A DNA stretch of 32,531 nt from Promethearchaeota archaeon (GCA_016839745.1 JAEOTS010000006.1:1-32531); one strand, 5' to 3'; counted from the first letter of the stretch, positions 1 through 9,682 are shown. A program made the numbers and translations. The notes: generated by a model not told the origin, from the letters alone.

Positions 1-1161
1 ACTCCTCACTATTTGATAGGTGTCTATTAACTCGTGATAATCGTATTGAGTGGACGAATCCCAGTTTCCAATTGCGTTTCGATTCGAAAGTATAAAATTA
101 ACGACTTCGTTTTGATTCAACCCAGTATACCCCGTGACATCTGCCAATTCAAGTCCCAAAGCTGTCCCGACTACATTAAGCATGTTATAAGCTCCATCAA
201 ACATTTGAAAAGAGTGACTGGTGGCGTCATATAATTTTGTTAAATACTGGTGAAAATTACTTAATTGGATGGTGTCGACTAAATCTAACACACTCAGGGT
301 TTTTATGTTATAATAAGAAGCTAACAAATTTACCTCACTAAACATCGCAAGAGAATTTAAACTCGGGTCATGTTCGTTGTAAAATCCCCCGAAATCGTAA
401 CTAGTTGAGCTATCCTCCTGTAATCCGTTTATAAAATTAACTAGGCTGGCCAATTCCGGATCGTAACCGCTCCAATCGTTCATTAGTAATTCGAGCGTGG
501 TAATCGCGTAAAAAGAATTATCCATTGTGGCTGTTTTAAACCCGTAAGATAAAGTTGGATCGTAGGGTTGACCTATAAATCCGTTCTCAGTTCCTTCTGG
601 ATTAAAGCAGCTCCAAATGAGATTTATTGAATCCTGAACATCAATCATATATAGCCTATTTAAGATATCTAAAGATAGAACTGCGTAGCAATTTACTTGG
701 AGAACAGACGTATAAGGGTTATACATATTAGGAAATATCGTATCTAAGTATCTATAAGCGTATTTATCCATGAATGTATGCGTTTCATCGTTATAAAGCG
801 ACATAACGTAATCTAAAACGCGCCCTTGATCGATTTGGTTCAACAATCCAACTGCCTCGAGAATATAGAGGGCGTAATAGGTTGCTTGTAACGACGGTTC
901 GTAATATTGTGGAAAGTAGCCTAATTGCGAATAGTCTATTAACTTTTGAGCGAAAATACTTTCAATCGTTTCGTAATTATCCGTGGATGAAACTTTTAGT
1001 TCTAAATCAAACTTGTTTTGTTTGTCTTCAAGTTTTTCTTGTATCAGAACGGGTTTGTTTGTAATGTCATCGTTGAATGCAATTCTTGAAAAAATTGAGC
1101 ACAAAATCAGAAGAAAGATACTACTACAAAATATGTATTTTTTCACATTATTCAATTTCAT
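1..1161 (-). CDS. Secreted or membrane-anchored prenyltransferase/squalene-oxidase-repeat (alpha/alpha toroid) protein, 3'-truncated by the window edge
   Basis: Not in the ORF track. I translated it by hand: ATG at 1161, frame open to base 1. N-terminal signal/TM (MKLNNVKKYIFCSSIFLLILCSIFS) followed by repeats such as SLQATYYALYILEAVG, TMDNSFYAITTLELL, LVNFINGLQ..FGGF, LLASYYNIKTLSVLD and LIDTYQIVRS. Confidence 0.75.
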   Translation of the reverse strand, partial: MKLNNVKKYIFCSSIFLLILCSIFSRIAFNDDITNKPVLIQEKLEDKQNKFDLELKVSSTDNYETIESIFAQKLIDYSQLGYFPQYYEPSLQATYYALYILEAVGLLNQIDQGRVLDYVMSLYNDETHTFMDKYAYRYLDTIFPNMYNPYTSVLQVNCYAVLSLDILNRLYMIDVQDSINLIWSCFNPEGTENGFIGQPYDPTLSYGFKTATMDNSFYAITTLELLMNDWSGYDPELASLVNFINGLQEDSSTSYDFGGFYNEHDPSLNSLAMFSEVNLLASYYNIKTLSVLDLVDTIQLSNFHQYLTKLYDATSHSFQMFDGAYNMLNVVGTALGLELADVTGYTGLNQNEVVNFILSNRNAIGNWDSSTQYDYHELIDTYQIVRS

Positions 1162-1163
1162 TG

Positions 1164-1496
1164 CTAAAGCTCCTTAACTAATTCTAATATACCTGAAATA
1201 AGTATCAATATTGCAGGTAGAAGGTTTATAAAGATCAGATTAAGTGCTGCTAATGACACAAGTGTTATCCAATGCCACGGAATCGGATTATCTGGTTTTA
1301 AACCAGTTACGATTGTGAATCCGGCAATTAAAAATCCACAATTGATGAAAATCAAGCTACCAACGCCTAAATTTAATATCCACACTTCTACATTTTCAAT
1401 TACGTATAACTTCATAAAAACAATGAATATACCGATTGCACCCCCCAAAATTGTCAGAAAGCGTACCATCTTTCTAAAAATTTCGGTTCTCTTCAT
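1164..1496 (-). CDS. Small multi-pass membrane protein, hypothetical
   Basis: 110 aa with 3-4 hydrophobic segments. Clear SD (AGGAGGTG) upstream of the ATG. Its stop lies 2 nt from the next ATG (1161). Confidence 0.8.
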   Translation of the reverse strand: MKRTEIFRKMVRFLTILGGAIGIFIVFMKLYVIENVEVWILNLGVGSLIFINCGFLIAGFTIVTGLKPDNPIPWHWITLVSLAALNLIFINLLPAILILISGILELVKEL

Positions 1497-1710
1497 TCAG
1501 CACCTCCTAAAACATTTCTTATTTTTTAATTTAATAATGATAATTCACTTCTCTTTTTTCAAGATTTAAGGTTTAAACGAAAAATCGACGAGTATATTTA
1601 AATAAAAAATAGGAAAAAAGAATGGGAAAAAGATACGAAGAGTTTTTCTCTTAATTTAGAGGAATTTGTAAAACTTTTTATTTTTTTATTTTAAATTTAA
1701 TCAAATGATT

Positions 1711-1985
1711 CTAAAATTCTAATTTCACCATATTGACGTTAAGATCGTTTAAACTTATTTGTATTAAGGAGTGATTTGGAATTTCTTTAGCATTTTCAGT
1801 AAATGGTGTGGTGTTTACAAGAATATCGTTATGATTTTTACTTAAAAAAAGTGTATGGTGTCTCCCATTAAAATTATTTTTATGGTTAAAGATGACATTA
1901 AAATGATGGGAATTAGAAAGAAAAGTATTAGCTCTAGTACCTATTTAAATTTTTATAAAGATGCTTTCTAAATCAGTCTTCATAT
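1711..1985 (-). pseudogene. Decayed copy of the 3' ~275 bp of the class II glutamine amidotransferase gene at 6832-7572
   Basis: Collinear without indels with 6832-7106 (offset 5121). About 35 mismatches in 275 by my manual count (~87% identity). In-frame GAA->TAA at 1945-1947; no 5' part or start codon. Confidence 0.92.
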
Positions 1986-2155
1986 CTTTTCTGTATTAAG
2001 CATATAAAAAAAATCAAGGACTCAAAAACAATTAAAGATGTCCACAGTTTTATTGGACTTGTTATCTTCAATCCAATATGTATAGAATAGTCAAATTATG
2101 GTTCTAAACGAAATTAATTAGGGTTGAATTATTTTTTCTTATACTTCTATGTTCT

Positions 2156-2288
2156 CGAAGATTTTTCGTCTTTTTATGGAATAATCGAAGATAGTTCGTT
2201 AGATTTATTATTGATAATTTATATATATAAAATGATTATACTTGATCTAATCTATTTAACTTTTAATAATAAATACGAATTAGATTCG
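2156..2288 (+). promoter_or_regulatory. gdhA promoter: three CGAA-N5-TTCG palindromes (2156-2168, 2186-2198, 2276-2288) and a TATA box TTATATAT (2219-2226)
   Basis: Sites read CGAAGATTTTTCG, CGAAGATAGTTCG and CGAATTAGATTCG. The same geometry occurs at 6571-6703 on the opposite strand. Confidence 0.7.
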
Positions 2289-2415
2289 AAAAAATCAAAA
2301 ATTAACATACAAAAGAGGGAAAATTATTTATAAAAAAGCTATAATTCTACCCGATAAAGTTGATATCCCGCGCAAAATTAAAAAGAGAATCAAAATAGAT
2401 AAGAATCCATTTGAA

Positions 2416-3645
2416 ATGGCGAAAAAACAAATTGATATAGTCGCTAAAGAGATGGGTTTAGATGAAAATATTAAAAAATACCTTAAAAGAGTTGAACGAT
2501 CCCTAATTGTATCAATTCCAATTATTATGGATAATGGGAAACTAGAGGTTTTTGAAGGATATAGAGTACATCACTCTACAGTTCGAGGCCCTGGTAAAGG
2601 AGGTATACGATATTCTAAAGATGTCTTTCTTGACGAGGTAAAAGCGTTAGCTATGTGGATGACGTGGAAAAATTCTTTGTTAAAACTTCCGTTAGGTGGA
2701 GCAAAAGGAGGGGTGTGTGTTGATCCTACTAAACTTTCAAGAAATGAACTTGAAAGATTAACTCGTAGATATACAGCAGAAATTATCAATATGATTGGTC
2801 CTGATATCGATATACCTGCCCCAGATATTAACACAAATCCCCAAATTATGGCATGGATCATGGATGTTTATTCTATGCAAAAAGGAAAATCAGTTCCAGG
2901 AGTAGTTACCGGAAAACCAATCGAAATTGGAGGTTCTGTTGGAAGAGAAACAGCAACAGGAATGGGATTATATTTTATCCTCGAAGCCTTGTGCATGAAA
3001 TTAAACTTGAATCTTAAATATTTGAGTGTTGTTATTCAAGGATTTGGAAATGTAGGAGGAAATATTGCTCAAATATTATATGAAAAAGGGGTTAAAATTG
3101 TAGCAGTTTCAGACATTAGTGGTGGTTTATACGATGCAGGAGGTCTGAATATAAAAGAATTAATCGATTGGAGAGACCAAAATCACTTATTAGAGGAATT
3201 TGATAAAAAGGAAAATGAATTCGTAAATAATGAAGAAATTTTAGAGATCGAATGCGACATTTTAATTCCTGCAGCCATAGAAAATCAAATAACGGAATCA
3301 AATGTGGATAATATAAATTGTCAAATTATAATTGAAGGAGCAAATGGTCCAACAACCCCTGAAGCAGATGAAATTCTTAAAGATAGAGGGATAATTGTAG
3401 TGCCAGATATCCTAGCTAATGCAGGGGGTGTATGCGTTTCATATTTTGAATATATTCAAGATATTCATAGTTATTTTTGGAAATTGGATCGAATTAATCT
3501 CGAATTAAAGAATGTTCTACTAGAAGCATTTGAAGAAGTTTATACTCTCTCAAAGGAGAAAAAGGTTACCTTAAGGATAGCGGCATACATGATTGCGATA
3601 TCAAGGTTAAGTAAAGCTATTGAATTAAGAGGAATTTTTCCATAA
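2416..3645 (+). CDS. gdhA: Glutamate dehydrogenase (Glu/Leu/Phe/Val dehydrogenase family); true start probably upstream (~2323-2326)
   Basis: GPGKGGIRY, GGAKGG, DIPAPD, TGKP..GGS.GR, GFGNVG Rossmann motif, EGANGP and PDILANAGGV. Confidence 0.96.
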   Translation: MAKKQIDIVAKEMGLDENIKKYLKRVERSLIVSIPIIMDNGKLEVFEGYRVHHSTVRGPGKGGIRYSKDVFLDEVKALAMWMTWKNSLLKLPLGGAKGGVCVDPTKLSRNELERLTRRYTAEIINMIGPDIDIPAPDINTNPQIMAWIMDVYSMQKGKSVPGVVTGKPIEIGGSVGRETATGMGLYFILEALCMKLNLNLKYLSVVIQGFGNVGGNIAQILYEKGVKIVAVSDISGGLYDAGGLNIKELIDWRDQNHLLEEFDKKENEFVNNEEILEIECDILIPAAIENQITESNVDNINCQIIIEGANGPTTPEADEILKDRGIIVVPDILANAGGVCVSYFEYIQDIHSYFWKLDRINLELKNVLLEAFEEVYTLSKEKKVTLRIAAYMIAISRLSKAIELRGIFP

Positions 3646-3693
3646 CGCCCGATAAATGCTACCTTATATTTATTAATTGTATAAAATTTTTTC

Positions 3694-4581
3694 TTATTTT
3701 CCTTGTGTAAAATAGATTTTATTAGTCATTTTGAAGATATCTATGAAATTTGATACTTTCATGTCGGGATTAATTCCTTCGATACTTTTAATTTTTTCGT
3801 TAATAAATCTCCAAAGGCTTTTTTCATTAGGAGCAATAAGTTTCAAAATTAGATTATGTTCGCCAGCTGAAGTGGTTAAAAGCTGAATCTCATCAAATTT
3901 TATTAATTTTTGGACGATATCTTTCAATTTTGAAGGATTAACGAATAAATGAATAATAGCTATAGTATTATAGCCTACTTTTATTGGATCAATAACGGTA
4001 TCAAATTTTTTTATAATTCCGTCATTAATCATGTTCTGTACGCGGTTATGTATTGTACTTGCTGCTAAATTCACTTTTTCACTTATCTCTTTGTAGGATA
4101 TTTTATAATTTTCTTGTAATATGTTAAGGATCATCTTATCCTTATCATCTAACCCTATCTGTATATCCGTCTCTTTTACTTTTTTAGATTCAATTTTATG
4201 TCGTTCAATTCCATACAATATAGCTCTTTTTAGAACATTTGCATTAAGCTCTCCTTTAACTAAGTAATCTTGAAATCCTTTTTTTAGAGAATTTAAAGCA
4301 ATTTCTTGGTCATCAAAACCTGTCAAAACTATAATTGGAAGTTCAGAAGTTAGATTTAACACTTTTTCGATCGTAGATTCCATATCACTGTCAGGAAGTT
4401 TTAGGTCTAATAAGATAATATCAAAGTCTTTCGTTTTAAGACGATTCATACCATCAATAAGGCGTGAAAATGATTCTAACTCATAAGTAAAATCAGAAAT
4501 TTTTTTTAAAAATTCTTGTATCAGGCGAACATCTGTAGTGTTATCTTCAATTAATAAAATATCTATATTGTGAGTTTCTAT
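3694..4581 (-). CDS. Response-regulator receiver domain fused to an Lrp/AsnC transcription factor (REC-HTH-RAM)
   Basis: The frame stays open upstream of the ORF-track ATG (4449) to 4587 and supplies the missing REC beta1 (IDILLIEDNTTDVRLIQEFL). Phospho-Asp in IILLDLKLPD, plus VLTG and YLVKG. Then an AsnC HTH (LDDKDKMILNILQENYKISYKEISEKVNLAASTIHNRVQNM..GII) and a RAM domain. Start codon uncertain. Confidence 0.9.
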   Translation of the reverse strand: METHNIDILLIEDNTTDVRLIQEFLKKISDFTYELESFSRLIDGMNRLKTKDFDIILLDLKLPDSDMESTIEKVLNLTSELPIIVLTGFDDQEIALNSLKKGFQDYLVKGELNANVLKRAILYGIERHKIESKKVKETDIQIGLDDKDKMILNILQENYKISYKEISEKVNLAASTIHNRVQNMINDGIIKKFDTVIDPIKVGYNTIAIIHLFVNPSKLKDIVQKLIKFDEIQLLTTSAGEHNLILKLIAPNEKSLWRFINEKIKSIEGINPDMKVSNFIDIFKMTNKIYFTQGK

Positions 4582-4741
4582 TTTAATTCACCATGTATTG
4601 CATAAATCTTTTAATTGAATAATATTCATTTTAAATGTATATTTATAGTTTAATAATTCTTATAAAATATTTATTTATCGAAATTTTTACAGAAAGTAAA
4701 TAATATTGTATGAATAATTAAAAAAGAGAGAGTTAAATAAA

Positions 4742-5803
4742 ATGAAATTGAACTTTCTAAAAGCTAGAACGAAAATCTTTACAATTCTGGTTTTAATACC
4801 ACTTTTAACTTTACTAGTTTTATACTTAGAATTAATACTTAAAACTACCATTCTTATTGCTCACCTTTTCTATTTTCCTTCAATATTGGCGTGTTTATGG
4901 TGGAAAAAAAAAGGTTTGATTGTGCCGGTATTTTTAGCTACTGTTTTAGTAGTTGTTCATTTGATAATAAGACAAGATTATTTCAATGCAGAGCCGATTA
5001 ATGATTTGATTATAGGTATATCGATAGTCTTTGTTGGAATTGTTGTCGCATATCTATCTGAACAAATTTCAAAAAAAGAATTTGATTTAAAAAATATTAT
5101 TGAAGATTTACAACGTTCTAACGAAGATTTGCAGCAATTCGCATATGTCTCATCCCACGATTTACAAGAACCTTTAAGAGCAATAATAAGCTTTTCTCAA
5201 CTTCTAGAAGATGAATATAAAGATAATTTAGACAAAGCTGGTAAAGAATTTCTTCATTTTATTACAGATGGGGCAAAAAAAATGAACACACTTATAAAAG
5301 ATTTGTTGGCATATTCAAGGATTACCACGCATGCTAAACCACCAAAGTGGAACAATCTCGAGAAGATTCTAGAAAATGCATTATTTAATTTGTCCGAATC
5401 AATTAAACAAAGTGGCGCAATTATTACTTATGATAAACTTCCTACTTTAAAAGTAGATAAAACTCAATTTTTGCAATTATTTCAAAATTTTATTAGTAAT
5501 GCTATTAAATTTCGACGAGAGGAGACACCTAAAATACACATAGGAGTAAAAAAAATAGATATCGGTTGGCTTTTCTCTATAGAAGATAATGGTATTGGGA
5601 TTGAATCACAGTATTTTGATCGAATATATAATATTTTTTATCGATTACATACTAAAGAGGAATATCCTGGTACTGGCATAGGATTACCTATCTGTAAAAA
5701 AATAATTCACCGCTATGGTGGACAAATATGGGTAGAATCAGAACTAGGTAAAGGATCAACTTTTTACTTTACCATTTTACTTAAAAATGCTAAAAACAAT
5801 TAA
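4742..5803 (+). CDS. Membrane-bound sensor histidine kinase (Cph1-like HisKA + HATPase_c)
   Basis: About 4 N-terminal TMs. H-box FAYVSSHDLQEPLR, N-box QNFISNAIKF, DNGIGI, GTGIGL and GKGSTFYF. Confidence 0.95.
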   Translation: MKLNFLKARTKIFTILVLIPLLTLLVLYLELILKTTILIAHLFYFPSILACLWWKKKGLIVPVFLATVLVVVHLIIRQDYFNAEPINDLIIGISIVFVGIVVAYLSEQISKKEFDLKNIIEDLQRSNEDLQQFAYVSSHDLQEPLRAIISFSQLLEDEYKDNLDKAGKEFLHFITDGAKKMNTLIKDLLAYSRITTHAKPPKWNNLEKILENALFNLSESIKQSGAIITYDKLPTLKVDKTQFLQLFQNFISNAIKFRREETPKIHIGVKKIDIGWLFSIEDNGIGIESQYFDRIYNIFYRLHTKEEYPGTGIGLPICKKIIHRYGGQIWVESELGKGSTFYFTILLKNAKNN

Positions 5804-5820
5804 CGGAGAAATAAAATGTA

Positions 5821-6264
5821 ATGGTAAATAAAAAAAAGAATAATTTTAAGATTTTACTTGTTGAAGATAATCCTGCGGATATTCGCCTTACACAAGAAGC
5901 TATTCAAAAAAGTGAATTAGTATCCCAGTTAGATGTCGTGAAAGACGGCGTTGAAGCAATAAAATTTTTACAAAAATTTAAAAAAGATTCTCATGTCGAG
6001 CGCCCTGATTTGATTCTTTTAGATTTAAATTTACCTAAAAAGAGTGGGCTTGATGTATTAAAGGAAATAAAGGAAGATGGAGATTTGAGACGAATTCCAG
6101 TAGTGGTTTTAACCATATCTAGTAACGAAGAAGATTTAATAAAAGCGTATAATCTCCATGCAAACTGTTTTATAAATAAACCATTAAATATTAAGGAATT
6201 TTACATAATTGTAGAATTCATTTGTACTTTCTGGTTTAAAGTAGTTAAACTTGCTAAAACTTAG
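5821..6264 (+). CDS. Stand-alone response regulator (Rcp1-like receiver)
   Basis: ILLVEDNPAD, PDLILLDLNLPKKSG, IPVVVLT and AYNLHANCFINKP. Lies directly downstream of the kinase. Confidence 0.95.
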   Translation: MVNKKKNNFKILLVEDNPADIRLTQEAIQKSELVSQLDVVKDGVEAIKFLQKFKKDSHVERPDLILLDLNLPKKSGLDVLKEIKEDGDLRRIPVVVLTISSNEEDLIKAYNLHANCFINKPLNIKEFYIIVEFICTFWFKVVKLAKT

Positions 6265-6324
6265 CGAAAAACTTGATTAGGTATAGCCCTTGATTAAAGA
6301 TAAAAAATTACTAATAGAATGATT

Positions 6325-6549
6325 TTATCTAACAACCTGAATAAGTTTTTCAATATTCTTTAATAAGTCAGCCTTTTCCAATTTAGGTTGATTGTATTCT
6401 TCAATAGGGTTACAATTCCACGGTCGAGAAATTCGATCATTGCATACTATAGCCCCATGAAAAATTTCAAAATCAGTACATGAATGATAAATTTTCCGAC
6501 CAAGAGAATATTCAACTCCACACTTAGGACACTTTACCATATAAATCAT
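6325..6549 (-). CDS. Small Zn-ribbon-like protein
   Basis: CPKC...HSC, plus two further Cys. Has its own TATA box and operator array upstream. Confidence 0.65.
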   Translation of the reverse strand: MIYMVKCPKCGVEYSLGRKIYHSCTDFEIFHGAIVCNDRISRPWNCNPIEEYNQPKLEKADLLKNIEKLIQVVR

Positions 6550-6570
6550 CTAATTTTATCTTATTTTTTA

Positions 6571-6703
6571 CGAATAATATTCGATTTCATTATCGAGTTT
6601 ATATTATACAAAATTGCTTCCTACACTTAATAATATATAACTCATCTTATATAAATCCATCGAAGAAAATTCAGTAATTAGTTTTCTTATCGTATTACTT
6701 TCG
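6571..6703 (-). promoter_or_regulatory. Promoter of the Zn-ribbon gene: three CGAA-N5-TTCG-type boxes (6691-6703, 6661-6673, 6571-6583) and TTATATAT (6640-6633)
   Basis: Sites read CGTATTACTTTCG and CGAAGAAAATTCA (one mismatch each) and CGAATAATATTCG (perfect). Spacing is 30 and 90, as at gdhA. Confidence 0.65.
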
Positions 6704-6831
6704 ATGGCAAGCGACATTTAATATATTTTCTTCAGTTAGTTTTAGGTGCCCTAAACTAAAATTTATGAATTATTGTCCAATTATTCAAGGATTTCATGAA
6801 TATAGCATATTTTTTCATATTATTAATGACT

Positions 6832-7106
6832 TTAGAATTCTAATTTCACCATATTCATGTTAAGATCGGCTAAACTTATTTGTATTAAGGAGTGATTTGG
6901 AATTTCTTTAGAATTATCAGTAAATGGTGTTGTGCTTACAAGAATATCGTTATGATTTTTACTTAAAAAAAGTGTATGGTGTCTCCCATTAAAATTAGTT
7001 TTATGGTTAGTGATAACATTGCAGCTTTGTGAATTAAAAAGAAAAGCATTAGCACCTGCACCTATTTCGATGGTTTTAAAGATGCTTTCTAAACCAATCT
7101 TCAAAT
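6832..7106. repeat. Right copy of the ~275-bp direct repeat (left copy 1711-1985)
   Basis: Direct manual alignment, ~87% identity. Confidence 0.92.
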
Positions 7107-7572
7107 TTCTACCTTCCTGTAATTCGTTGATAATTGAACAAAGATATTTTCGAGTATCTAAGTCAGTTTCATTATAAATTTTATTCAATTTTGGGTTTTT
7201 TAATTTTATACTTGGAAATTTTTTTATAATTCCATTGTGAGTTATGAGATATTTCTCTTTAATACTAATAGGGTGTACGTTTCCTAAGTTCTTTTTCCAA
7301 GGAAGCGTTTTTCTTGCGTGAACTAAAAGGAATCGAGTATTAATTTTAGCAAGATTTTTCCAGTCTGCGTGGTAAATAGGAGCTAAATCTCGCTTTATAA
7401 CGAGTTCTTTGTCATTTTCAGAGAGATAAGCAAATCCCCAGCCTAATCCATGGTGTCCAAGGAGGTCATACTTCCTTAAATAGCGCCAATGGCATGATTT
7501 TACATATTTTTTTAAAATATTGTAATCCAAATGAAAGGGTTCAAGAGAGCACTTAAAGAACATACGACACAT
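6832..7572 (-). CDS. Class II (Ntn) glutamine amidotransferase, YafJ/EgtC-like
   Basis: Met-Cys-Arg start at 7572 gives the N-terminal nucleophile Cys. Motifs HGLGWG, VHARK, NVHP, THNG and TDLDT. Confidence 0.85.
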   Translation of the reverse strand: MCRMFFKCSLEPFHLDYNILKKYVKSCHWRYLRKYDLLGHHGLGWGFAYLSENDKELVIKRDLAPIYHADWKNLAKINTRFLLVHARKTLPWKKNLGNVHPISIKEKYLITHNGIIKKFPSIKLKNPKLNKIYNETDLDTRKYLCSIINELQEGRNLKIGLESIFKTIEIGAGANAFLFNSQSCNVITNHKTNFNGRHHTLFLSKNHNDILVSTTPFTDNSKEIPNHSLIQISLADLNMNMVKLEF

Positions 7573-7610
7573 GAGCAATCAATTAGAATATTTTTATCCT
7601 AATAATAAAA

Positions 7611-8720
7611 TTAAGACTTACCTAAAAAGTAAGCGAATATAGAACCGTTATCGTGACAGCTAATAAGAATATTTAACTCTGAATCATATTTGATGTCGTT
7701 AACACAGGAATTTTTGTTAATTTCAGCAATAATTTTACCAGAACCAGCGTTTACGATTAAGATATTCCCTTTAGTAGTTCCAATAATGACATAGGTCATC
7801 GAGAAAGTGTCTATATGAATAAGTGTTTCCACATTAACATTTGTAATCTCCCAAATATTCTCTAATTCCGAATTCAAACACATTAATTTTGAACTAAATT
7901 CAATATCCTTAATTTCGATAGAGTCATCAAAAAAAGCGAATGAATAGCTGCTGACTAATAGGTAAGACTTCTTCTCAAGGTTGAATGAGGAACATCTCCA
8001 TACAAAGTCATCAAATTCAATTGTTTTTAATTCTTCTTGAGAACTTTTATCAATTACATGAAGTTTTTTATCATCCCCACCGCAGACAATCAGTTCTTTT
8101 CTGTTTGATTTCATATATGATACGCACCGAATTTTTTCATTAAAGTGTTTAAACCAAAGGAGTTCTCCGTTTTCTCCTTTAAAAACACGGATTGTTCCGT
8201 CATTTCCACACGCTATAATCTCTTTTAGGGAGGGATTTTTTGTGTCTTGCCATATAATAGCCTCTCCAATTCCATCTCCGAATAATTGCCCCCATATTAA
8301 GGATCCGTCAATTGGATTCAAGCATCGCATACTTTTATCAATAGAATAAGCTATAATTTCTTTGTTACCATCATTATTAACATCGTCAAACAAAAAACCG
8401 CTAATAGAAGCACCAAATTGGTGTATCCAAAATGGATTTAATTCATAAGAGGTGATACATTTGTATGTTCTTAACAGACCATCTAAACCTGCTGTGATAA
8501 TTTCGTTTGTATTATCTAGTATCATCGCTTGCCATAGAGAGGAATTTTCTGAAATCTCTAATTCAGTTAATTTTTTTCCATTTAGAGAAAAAATATATAA
8601 TTTCCCGGATTTAGTAAATCCTATAATTTCCTTTTGACCGTTATTATTTACATCTCCAATTTCAATCCCAAGAATCTTTTCACTGGAGTAGAACTCCCAA
8701 TGTTCTTTAATACTAACCAT
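7611..8720 (-). CDS. Beta-propeller protein with FG-GAP/WD40-like blades
   Basis: GDVNNNGQKEII, DDVNNDGNKEII, ITAGLDGLLRTY, IACGNDGTIRVF, VCGGDDKKLHVID and ISCHDNGSIFAY. No signal peptide. Confidence 0.8.
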   Translation of the reverse strand: MVSIKEHWEFYSSEKILGIEIGDVNNNGQKEIIGFTKSGKLYIFSLNGKKLTELEISENSSLWQAMILDNTNEIITAGLDGLLRTYKCITSYELNPFWIHQFGASISGFLFDDVNNDGNKEIIAYSIDKSMRCLNPIDGSLIWGQLFGDGIGEAIIWQDTKNPSLKEIIACGNDGTIRVFKGENGELLWFKHFNEKIRCVSYMKSNRKELIVCGGDDKKLHVIDKSSQEELKTIEFDDFVWRCSSFNLEKKSYLLVSSYSFAFFDDSIEIKDIEFSSKLMCLNSELENIWEITNVNVETLIHIDTFSMTYVIIGTTKGNILIVNAGSGKIIAEINKNSCVNDIKYDSELNILISCHDNGSIFAYFLGKS

Positions 8721-8861
8721 TCTTTTATCAGTTTAACTTACACTAGTTTATTAAGAGTTAATTAAATGAAACAGATATAATTTTTAATAAAATATGATTA
8801 TAAATAAATTAAAAGTAAATTAAGAATAAATTTAATATAAAAATTTGTTGAGTGAAAACAA

Positions 8862-9296
8862 GTGTCAGAAGAAAGAAATATTGATCCTTTTTCGATATTG
8901 ATTTTAGTTCTTAGTGTTATTGCAATTGTAACGGAATTAATTGGTCCTTTCGCAGGTTTCTATCTAGGTGGTGGCAATTATAGATATTCATGTTTGGATT
9001 GTGAATATAGTACAGGGTTTGATTATACAATGCAAATTATAATTATAATACTATTCGTGATTCAAATAGTCATTGCTTTGAACGAACTGCTACCTAACAA
9101 ATTCATTCCTATGGATATCACAAAATTCGGTATATATTTAGCAATACTAAGTTGGGTCTTTGCAATCATTGCACTTGCCTCTTTTGGAATAGCTTATATG
9201 GCTTTTGAATGGTGGCCCGAATTAGGTTTTTATGGAATGGTTGTCGGTGGTCTTCTTAATACAATACTATTCTTTTTGCAACAAAGAAATAAATAA
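8862..9296 (+). CDS. Four-TM membrane protein with a CxxC in the first loop
   Basis: Four hydrophobic helices. GAGTGA SD 6 nt before GTG. T-tract after the stop. Confidence 0.8.
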   Translation: MSEERNIDPFSILILVLSVIAIVTELIGPFAGFYLGGGNYRYSCLDCEYSTGFDYTMQIIIIILFVIQIVIALNELLPNKFIPMDITKFGIYLAILSWVFAIIALASFGIAYMAFEWWPELGFYGMVVGGLLNTILFFLQQRNK

Positions 9297-9310
9297 TTCT
9301 TTTTTTTTTT
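9297..9310 (+). terminator. Oligo-T archaeal-type terminator
   Basis: Run of about 11 T immediately after the stop of 8862-9296. Confidence 0.5.
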
Positions 9311-9484
9311 ATATTTTCTGCAATTTTGAATTAAATCTCCTAAATTTTCTGATAATTATCTTTGATCATTTCTTATAATAAGAACGAAATTTAAATCTTT
9401 TACACAATTCTCATAAACAATGGTAATTATTTTATCAATACAAAAATTACTTAATTCCGAAAAAAAATAGAGAAGGAGTCGAAA

Positions 9485-9682
9485 ATGAGCTTTCAAATTA
9501 AGCTAGATTTAGATGGTTGCACTGGTTGTGGAACATGTTACGAAGTCTGCCCAAGTGAATGTTTCGGGGAACCAGAAGGCGGAAAGGTAAATGTAATCGA
9601 AGACAATAGAGATGATTGCGTCGGTTGCAGAGCTTGTGAAACCCAGTGTCCCGAGGAAGTAATCGAGATTATTGAGGAATAA
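9485..9682 (+). CDS. 2x[4Fe-4S] ferredoxin
   Basis: CTGCGTCYEVCP and CVGCRACETQCP. SD AAGGAG upstream. Confidence 0.95.
   Translation: MSFQIKLDLDGCTGCGTCYEVCPSECFGEPEGGKVNVIEDNRDDCVGCRACETQCPEEVIEIIEE

Follow-up and report, generated by a model that had tools for sequence, protein, structure and literature searches.

Two-component systems of archaea appear to act mostly by protein–protein contacts, and response regulators that bind DNA are rare among them (PMC5847659). Characterised systems with such regulators include FilI–FilR1/FilR2 of Methanothrix (Methanosaeta) harundinacea and LtrK/LtrR of Methanococcoides burtonii, and the bacterial classes OmpR/PhoB, NarL/FixJ and NtrC are largely missing from archaea (PMC5847659). 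For Asgard archaea, the literature that we searched yielded neither a characterised two-component system nor a paper on their two-component regulators or on REC-Lrp or REC-AsnC fusions (REC, receiver domain); a census published in 2018 has a single ‘Other RR’ entry, left unexplained, for a metagenome-assembled genome (MAG) of Lokiarchaeota. These archaea are the closest prokaryotic relatives of eukaryotes. Here, we describe a five-gene cassette in a 32.5-kb stretch of DNA from a Promethearchaeota archaeon (GCA_016839745.1, JAEOTS010000006.1:1-32531; hereafter the window). It encodes a membrane histidine kinase, a stand-alone receiver, a glutamate dehydrogenase (GDH; gdhA), a small Cys/His-rich protein (the Zn gene) and a response regulator, REC-Lrp, in which a receiver is followed by the helix-turn-helix (HTH) and RAM domains of the Lrp/AsnC family. 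The reading that we favour, with a probability of about 0.6, is that one Asgard family possesses, as a lineage-specific and transferable unit, a two-component regulon cassette in which REC-Lrp would bind palindromic boxes in the cassette promoters under the control of the kinase. The five genes travel together, their catalytic and phospho-acceptor motifs are intact, and the 13-bp palindrome YGAA-N5-TTCR (the relaxed box) stands at conserved positions in three promoters.

The Fil and Ltr systems resemble the cassette in pairing one histidine kinase with a DNA-binding response regulator, and Fil also has a stand-alone receiver. They differ in the make-up of that regulator, FilR1 being a wHTH-DUF1724-REC protein (wHTH, winged HTH) and LtrR an HTH-REC protein, neither of them with an Lrp/AsnC HTH or a RAM domain; their targets are methanogenesis and cold response, neither is from an Asgard archaeon, and the comparison with REC-Lrp was made at the receiver domain alone. 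Proteins belonging to the OmpR/PhoB, NarL/FixJ and NtrC classes likewise place a receiver before a DNA-binding output and have their kinase encoded next to them, whereas in REC-Lrp the output is a module of the Lrp/AsnC kind, which brings a ligand-binding and oligomerisation domain of its own, so that one protein could receive two inputs. On the Lrp side, we compared the archaeal proteins LrpA (1i1g), FL11/PH1519 (1ri7, 2e1c), PH0140 (9w4v), LysM, Ptr2, Ss-LrpB, Sa-Lrp and Halobacterium Lrp/LrpA1. The likeness lies in 13-bp A/T-centred palindromes, a box in the regulator's own promoter, regularly spaced boxes and the (here putative) control of amino-acid metabolism, but none of these named members carries an N-terminal receiver. 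Sa-Lrp is described as glutamine-responsive (PMC3584215), and the Halobacterium Lrp is the subject of a separate report (PMC2894021). Finally, the stand-alone receiver of the cassette resembles that of the cyanobacterial Cph1–Rcp1/RcpA pairs, matching the RcpA and Rcp1 structures in the PDB over its full length (E ~5e-39). The H-box of the cassette kinase, SHDLQEPLR, is of what we take to be the same HisKA flavour as in cyanobacterial phytochrome-type kinases, but the protein lacks a phytochrome, PAS or GAF sensor and has four membrane segments as its input instead. Judged by sequence, known parts (a two-component system and an Lrp protein) are combined in a manner found neither in the literature searched nor among the top-scoring matches outside the family, with a cis-regulatory layout that is defined unusually well. 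The cassette and its genes are as follows.

1991-6832: inserted cassette of 4.84 kb, with five genes and three box-bearing promoters
2416-3645, plus strand: gdhA ‘type A’, counted from the conserved Met; ELFV_dehydrog E 1e-76, N domain E 3e-56
3694-4581, minus strand: REC-HTH_AsnC-RAM response regulator (REC-Lrp), 295 aa if the ATA at 4581-4579 is the start; Pfam, alignment
4742-5803, plus strand: membrane HisKA histidine kinase; Pfam HisKA E 6e-12, HATPase_c E 1e-24
5821-6264, plus strand: stand-alone Rcp1/RcpA-like receiver, 18 nt after the kinase; Pfam, synteny
6325-6549, minus strand: 74-aa Cys/His-rich protein, a stand-alone form of the N-terminal domain of Zn-Lrp (see below)

The kinase and the stand-alone receiver are divergent from REC-Lrp, and the outer genes, gdhA and the Zn gene, are each convergent with their neighbour. 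An earlier note on this DNA had described a membrane kinase and an Rcp1-like receiver transcribed divergently from a REC-HTH_AsnC-RAM fusion, an arrangement that the Pfam matches and gene orientations confirm. It had gone on to propose a self-contained phosphorelay regulon controlling gdhA and the 74-aa gene. What stands of this proposal is its core idea, a two-component transcriptional circuit centred on REC-Lrp and aimed at gdhA, which is well supported by comparative genomics. The circuit is not a phosphorelay, the five cassette proteins containing no Hpt or second HisKA domain in Pfam and NCBIfam searches, which leaves one kinase and two receivers; nor does the Zn gene appear to be a mere target.

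The comparison set consisted of 25 orthologous REC-Lrp loci from genome assemblies. In about 20 of them, the Zn gene, the stand-alone receiver, the kinase, REC-Lrp and gdhA follow one another in the same order and orientations, at REC-Lrp identities of 60-78%, while the flanking genes vary from locus to locus and the genes beside the window's module never recur. The hypothesis survived strongly when REC-Lrp homologues were examined for linkage to gdhA, the kinase and the motif. Within the GTDB family of the window, REC-Lrp occurs as a single copy in 30 of 68 sampled genomes (the submitters' labels of these MAGs vary between Loki-, Hod-, Thor-, Heimdall-, Hermod- and Odinarchaeota), and it was not found in any of the 232 genomes sampled from 29 further families in the phylum. 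It is patchy even within genera (15 of 27 and 12 of 22 genomes), and this patchiness fits, together with the variable flanks, a gain and loss of the cassette as a unit. Among 1.84 billion 50%-identity representatives, the whole REC-Lrp family comes down to one full-length match, at 524.6 bits; the next matches reached at most 253 bits and were single-domain, those that we checked being REC-HisKA-REC, tandem-Lrp, REC-only or Lrp-only proteins. Weak independent REC and Lrp fusions below ~147 bits fall outside the reach of this search. REC-Lrp-like matches in a Methanobacteriota MAG and in cyanobacteria (L030, L060) were set aside, as these proteins are at least 744 aa long and have the receiver region alone in common.

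The stop-to-stop frame of REC-Lrp spans 3694-4587 on the minus strand, and all three of its domains lie above the Pfam cut-offs. HTH_24 (60.7 bits), HTH_AsnC (48.4 bits) and AsnC_trans_reg (33.7 bits) score above their curated thresholds, and the REC match (PF00072) has an E value of 5.7e-10 as measured on a shortened open reading frame (ORF). An alignment of 17 REC-Lrp homologues shows no variation at D61, T89 and K111, and conservation of 90% or more at E14/D15. Homologues are numerous, 56-93% identical and ~290-298 aa long, each with four Pfam domains. Lrp proteins in the PDB match residues 138-273 (E 1e-23 to 1e-38), and a PDB search returned no solved chain covering the receiver and Lrp halves together. 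The NCBIfam models LrpA, LrpA1 and LysM match the C-terminal 150 residues (E 1e-16 to 1e-20) with scores far below their equivalog cut-offs, so REC-Lrp is not orthologous to any named Lrp member. In this genome, REC-Lrp is the sole candidate DNA-binding protein of the cassette, and the other Lrp paralogues are merely 28-30% identical to it.

The second line of evidence comes from the promoters. Within the window, the exact palindrome CGAA-N5-TTCG occurs four times against 0.35 expected, a count that none of 100 shuffles reached. The four sites start at 2156, 2186 and 2276, before gdhA, and at 6571, before the Zn gene, where one-mismatch boxes starting at 6661 and 6691 complete a second array with the same 30/90-nt spacing, mirrored so that one array points towards gdhA and the other towards the Zn gene. 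The earlier statement that the two promoters share one operator array is thereby upheld. The elements are listed below, the TATA-like ones being assigned from sequence.

2156-2168: gdhA operator box 1, CGAAGATTTTTCG, exact match; position conserved in orthologous loci
2186-2198: gdhA operator box 2, CGAAGATAGTTCG, exact match; ends 4 nt before the TATA-like element
2203-2210, plus strand: putative gdhA TATA-like element, ATTTATTA
2276-2288: gdhA operator box 3, CGAATTAGATTCG, exact match; lies 90 nt downstream of box 2 and immediately precedes the extended gdhA frame
4616-4628, minus strand: REC-Lrp promoter operator, TGAATATTATTCA; 9 nt after the TATA-like CTATAAATATA (4648-4638)
6571-6583: Zn-gene proximal box, CGAATAATATTCG, exact match; centre 28 nt before the ATG
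6647-6656, minus strand: putative Zn-gene TATA-like element, ATTTATATAA; 4 nt after the middle box
6661-6673: Zn-gene middle box, with a single mismatch; 90 nt away from the proximal one, a spacing that most loci repeat
6691-6703: Zn-gene distal box, with a single mismatch; 30 nt away from the middle one

Over the 3.53 Mb of the host genome assembly (89% complete), the motif is not over-represented (37 sites vs 44 for a control). What stands out is the clustering: nowhere in the assembly but in this module do relaxed boxes form a cluster of three or more, or pairs at phased spacings. The 11-mer core has 10 sites in the host genome, four of them outside long ORFs, of which two lie in the cassette; another overlaps the stop codon of a TIR-domain gene, and the fourth, before a GTPase gene, is described at the end. 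Neither of these two was taken to mark a further regulon member. In another genome, a cluster of three boxes (G113:C74) spaced 115 and 111 nt apart falls within the coding region of an FAD-oxidoreductase and was treated as chance.

Across the orthologous loci, the boxes are concentrated in the same places. The promoter windows of gdhA and the Zn gene, 15.4 kb in all, contain 37 exact boxes, as opposed to 4 in the remaining 341 kb of the loci. All gdhA promoters (19/19), all Zn-gene promoters (16/16) and 24/25 of those of REC-Lrp have relaxed boxes, the density in these three promoters being 5-7 per kb vs 0.165 per kb outside. Spacings of 30, 61, 90 or 121 nt and the distances to the start codons are fixed across loci. 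All 19 gdhA promoters have a box whose centre lies 118-136 nt before the conserved Met. In gdhA promoters, a second box follows 90-121 nt further upstream and another 30 nt beyond; in the Zn-gene promoters, the spacings are 90 nt and then 30 or 61 nt, with a proximal relaxed box in most of the 16. At the middle box, a composite of TTCR, ~4-5 nt and TTTA(T/A)A is found in 15 of 19 gdhA and 13 of 16 Zn-gene promoters; the window's own gdhA promoter reads TTTATT and is one of the four loci without the strict form. With TTTA(T/A)A lying 4-5 nt past it, the middle box would occupy the position of the TFB-recognition element (BRE), and the proximal box would lie downstream of the expected transcription start. 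The best-conserved box is that of the REC-Lrp promoter, whose core GAATATTATTC is exact in 20 of 21 loci. This near-invariant site, which the earlier note had not recorded, suggests autoregulation. As a separate observation, the segment that separates the TATA-like element from the proximal gdhA box includes a ~40-nt stretch, CATATATAAAATGAAGAGATATAATCTAATCAATTAAAAT, near-identical in nine loci (L011-L014, L017, L018, L020, L023 and L081). Its conservation exceeds what is expected of a spacer and could reflect a leader, a small ORF or another site for a protein.

The boxes are also specific to one type of gdhA. The product of the window gene is certainly an ELFV glutamate dehydrogenase, PF02812 and PF00208 matching at full length; its cofactor and subtype are less certain, the NCBIfam scores (GdhA_Arch 500.9 bits, GdhB_Halo 504.1 bits) staying below the equivalog cut-offs (750 and 620). 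Its frame is open from 2284, and positions 2284-2415 probably encode the N-terminal extension of 35-40 residues, with the motif ..IIYKK..vL.DEvE..., that is conserved in type-A genes (L001-L024, L081-L083). This extension starts with ATG in many loci and with GTG in two, and has no canonical start in the window and four other loci. Genomes of the family carry up to four GDH paralogues, often in tandem in congeners, and the paralogous genes lack the extension (open frames of 418-425 aa vs 443-471 aa for type A). Genes of the REC-Lrp-linked type show 74-83% identity to that of the window, and the one canonical GDH found in the 89%-complete host genome is of this type. In three genomes (G099, G189, G201), a type-A gdhA lies on another contig or 17 kb from REC-Lrp and still retains boxes at the canonical distances, and no boxes were found in 14 regions upstream of paralogous GDH genes, whether or not the genome has REC-Lrp. 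Of 20 REC-Lrp-positive genomes of the family, 16 have type-A gdhA, vs 1 of 30 that are REC-Lrp-negative, counts from related genomes that are not a formal statistic.

Several observations weigh against the favoured reading, and we gather them here and in the next three paragraphs with the alternatives that they feed. The AlphaFold model of REC-Lrp is confident for the receiver alone (pLDDT ~90, with a moderate value for the HTH and below 50 for the RAM domain) and therefore silent on control between the domains.

A first group concerns the kinase. Its translation, read by eye, begins with four hydrophobic segments, without an extracytoplasmic or recognisable sensor domain, and, in favour of the reading, its H, N, G1 and G2 boxes are all present (SHDLQEPLR, NAIKF, DNGIGI, GTGIGL). 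On the other side, it is co-transcribed with the stand-alone receiver rather than with REC-Lrp, and the 18-nt gap on one strand is the classical arrangement of a cognate pair. REC-Lrp is read divergently, its receiver is closest to those of large multidomain proteins, and tblastn between the two receivers gave no cross-match at 1e-5, hence they are not close paralogues. In one locus (L015), moreover, REC-Lrp adjoins a different kinase, which is 31% identical. These facts would suit a scheme in which REC-Lrp binds the boxes while the kinase signals only to the Rcp1-like receiver, REC-Lrp being phosphorylated by a different kinase or by small-molecule donors, or its receiver acting independently of phosphorylation. 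We regard this scheme as unlikely: kinase, receiver and REC-Lrp stay adjacent in about 20 loci despite varying flanks, with kinase orthologues 68-80% identical, the phospho-acceptor residues of REC-Lrp are invariant, and in the FilI system one kinase serves both a DNA-binding regulator and a stand-alone receiver (PMC5847659).

A second difficulty is the start of REC-Lrp, for which the window offers no in-frame ATG, GTG or TTG before the receiver. The ORF beginning with ATG (3694-4449, 251 aa) drops the first third of the receiver, and the open frame upstream of the ATG at 4449 encodes the missing receiver strands and the acidic pocket. It could be argued that REC-Lrp is a decaying pseudogene in this genome and the cassette a recently inserted, partly inactive passenger, given that the gdhA extension likewise lacks a canonical start and that the cassette is an insertion. 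Such decay is highly improbable, however, as the frame of 297 codons is unbroken, with 93% identity to relatives, and as both the lack of a canonical start and the arrangement GGTGA, 6 nt, ATA (4579-4592, minus strand, in the window) recur at 13 of the 25 other loci (L005, L007, L009-L013, L015, L018, L019, L022, L023, L025). The position of the ATA is taken by ATG or TTG in other loci, the TGA within GGTGA is an in-frame stop upstream of REC-Lrp, and an AUA start at 4581-4579 gives 295 aa, the length of the relatives. REC-Lrp thus probably starts at AUA, which would be a conserved start codon on a putatively autoregulated gene. Recoding of the TGA or a +1 frameshift is less likely than AUA initiation because 14 loci share GGTGA, 6 nt and ATA.

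The third group bears on the identity of the box-binding protein. Genome G049, at 99% marker completeness, has a boxed type-A gdhA (G049:C64; L083 650-790), and neither REC-Lrp nor a close Lrp paralogue was detected in it at E <= 1e-15; either the regulator is unassembled there, or another factor uses the boxes. A candidate for a second box binder is encoded in some of the cassettes themselves. The conserved 47-residue Cys/His domain of the small Zn protein forms, in 11 loci, the N-terminus of a 197-aa protein, Zn-Lrp, the remainder of which is an Lrp that shares 47-58% identity with the corresponding half of REC-Lrp. With a recognition helix, LAASTIHNRVKKM, that nearly equals that of REC-Lrp, LAASTIHNRVQNM, Zn-Lrp could be the binder or a co-binder of the boxes in many genomes. 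One other Lrp of the host genome has the TIHNR core too, and stand-alone Lrp paralogues with similar boxes nearby occur in the congener G325. The boxes might, in other words, be real operators bound by Zn-Lrp, by a stand-alone Lrp or by an unrelated protein, REC-Lrp being co-located or a partner. We consider this quite unlikely. In the window genome and seven other loci, the Zn domain stands alone (58-84 aa), without the Lrp half, yet the box arrays are full; the best-conserved box is the one in REC-Lrp's own promoter; and boxes co-occur with REC-Lrp across genomes in the proportions given above for type-A gdhA.

The Zn gene itself deserves a closer look, as the earlier note had cast it as a controlled target. 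Its promoter carries the boxes, in agreement with this view; it is, at the same time, not just a target but the equivalent of the Zn-Lrp N-terminal domain, and is, on these comparisons, better seen as part of the regulatory machinery. With the Zn domain kept alone in the window and seven loci, the original cassette encoded two paralogues of Lrp that differed in their N-terminal input domains. The 74-aa protein has no Pfam or NCBIfam match, and C7, C10, H22, C24, H31 and C46 are invariant in an alignment of 17 homologues. Its AlphaFold model has a pLDDT of 66, and Foldseek found nothing in the PDB at E <= 0.001. By Rosetta-stone logic, one idea is that the stand-alone Zn domain might bind REC-Lrp in trans; a complex prediction of the Lrp half of REC-Lrp with the 74-aa protein scored 0.00 without controls and was used neither way. 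As for the two stand-alone Lrp genes of G325 (G325:C4; L117 2308-2760 and 4772-5230), their identity to the Lrp half of REC-Lrp is 50-54%, their recognition helix resembles that of REC-Lrp, and they lie near boxes similar to YGAA-N5-TTCG. Such proteins may be the stock that gave rise to REC-Lrp and Zn-Lrp.

That the cassette is transferable is suggested by its borders, where the earlier note had placed direct repeats.

1704-1990, minus strand: left direct repeat, an orphan 3′ fragment of a GATase-like gene
6825-7110, minus strand: right direct repeat, corresponding to the 3′ end of a GATase-like gene that is intact (6832-7578)

The repeats do flank the unit, positions 1704-1879 and 6825-7000 being 93% identical over 176 nt and the alignment extending to ~1990 and ~7110. 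Their nature could now be read from an empty site in the congener G325 (G325:C131, L112), in which prenyltransferase, orf110, GATase-like, beta-propeller and orf144 genes are unbroken. Window positions 1-1990 and 6833-9493 both align to this contiguous DNA, with an overlap of 278 nt, so the 4.84-kb cassette is an insertion that duplicated a target segment, the 3′ end of the GATase-like gene. In tblastn, the left fragment (1711-1989) retains 76% amino-acid identity to GATase-like residues 157-248, with one stop. The same right-hand flank exists in G270, a genome without REC-Lrp. Pfam detected no recombinase, integrase or transposase among the five cassette genes, and we infer that a circular intermediate bearing a homologous segment integrated by a single crossover. 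The empty site provides a clean example in which a regulator and its putative regulon would have been transferred as one unit.

Returning to the favoured reading, the circuit could work as follows. The membrane kinase would sense a signal, probably a membrane-associated one, and phosphorylate the receiver Asp of REC-Lrp as well as the Rcp1-like receiver, which may act as a competitor, sink or adaptor. REC-Lrp dimers would bind the palindromes through their AsnC-type winged helix. At the REC-Lrp gene, a single box between the TATA-like element and the expected start would mediate negative autoregulation; archaeal Lrp proteins such as LrpA and Ss-LrpB typically have a palindrome in their own promoter and are autoregulated. 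At gdhA and the Zn gene, two upstream boxes, the inner of which would abut the BRE/TATA position, are joined by a third 90-121 nt downstream. The spacings, close to multiples of 30 nt, would put the boxes in helical phase and are compatible with an oligomer of REC-Lrp, which could bind cooperatively and so wrap around the core promoter. Together with phosphorylation, an amino-acid ligand of the RAM domain may then change the oligomeric state or box occupancy (partial vs full), which would switch transcription of the only canonical GDH found in the genome. Ptr2 and LysM activate from sites beside the TATA box, LrpA and Ss-LrpB repress or wrap the promoter, and the layout seen here appears compatible with activation, repression or both.

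If the favoured reading is true, the cassette is a rare case of direct control of transcription by a two-component system in archaea. The parts of the candidate circuit (sensor, two receivers, output, operators and target) are defined to the base pair in ~25 independent orthologous loci, and its three operators sit with fixed geometry around core promoters of the archaeal, eukaryote-like type. It would open access to the readout of phosphorylation on a TBP/TFB-type promoter, to the integration of two signals by an Lrp oligomer and to the control of GDH, an enzyme central to the amino-acid-fermenting lifestyle proposed for Asgard archaea. A bolder version, which we put forward tentatively and hold to be somewhat doubtful, sees in REC-Lrp a new response-regulator class from one Asgard family, in which phosphorylation and ligand jointly set the state of a promoter-wrapping Lrp oligomer, delivered on a mobile 4.8-kb plug-and-play cassette that comes with the kinase, a decoy receiver, a Zn-domain partner, gdhA as the target and every cis-element, REC-Lrp being translated from a conserved AUA start.

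Two further observations were made outside the module proper. A single box-like sequence, AGAATATTATTCA, lies 17 nt before a gene for a Ras-family small GTPase (G000:C37:24580; L116 1581-1591); it may be due to chance and is not claimed as a site. Within positions 1-9500 of the window, there were no Rfam families or tRNAs, and the ~900 nt before gdhA (1497-2155) are free of genes except for the orphan GATase-like fragment.

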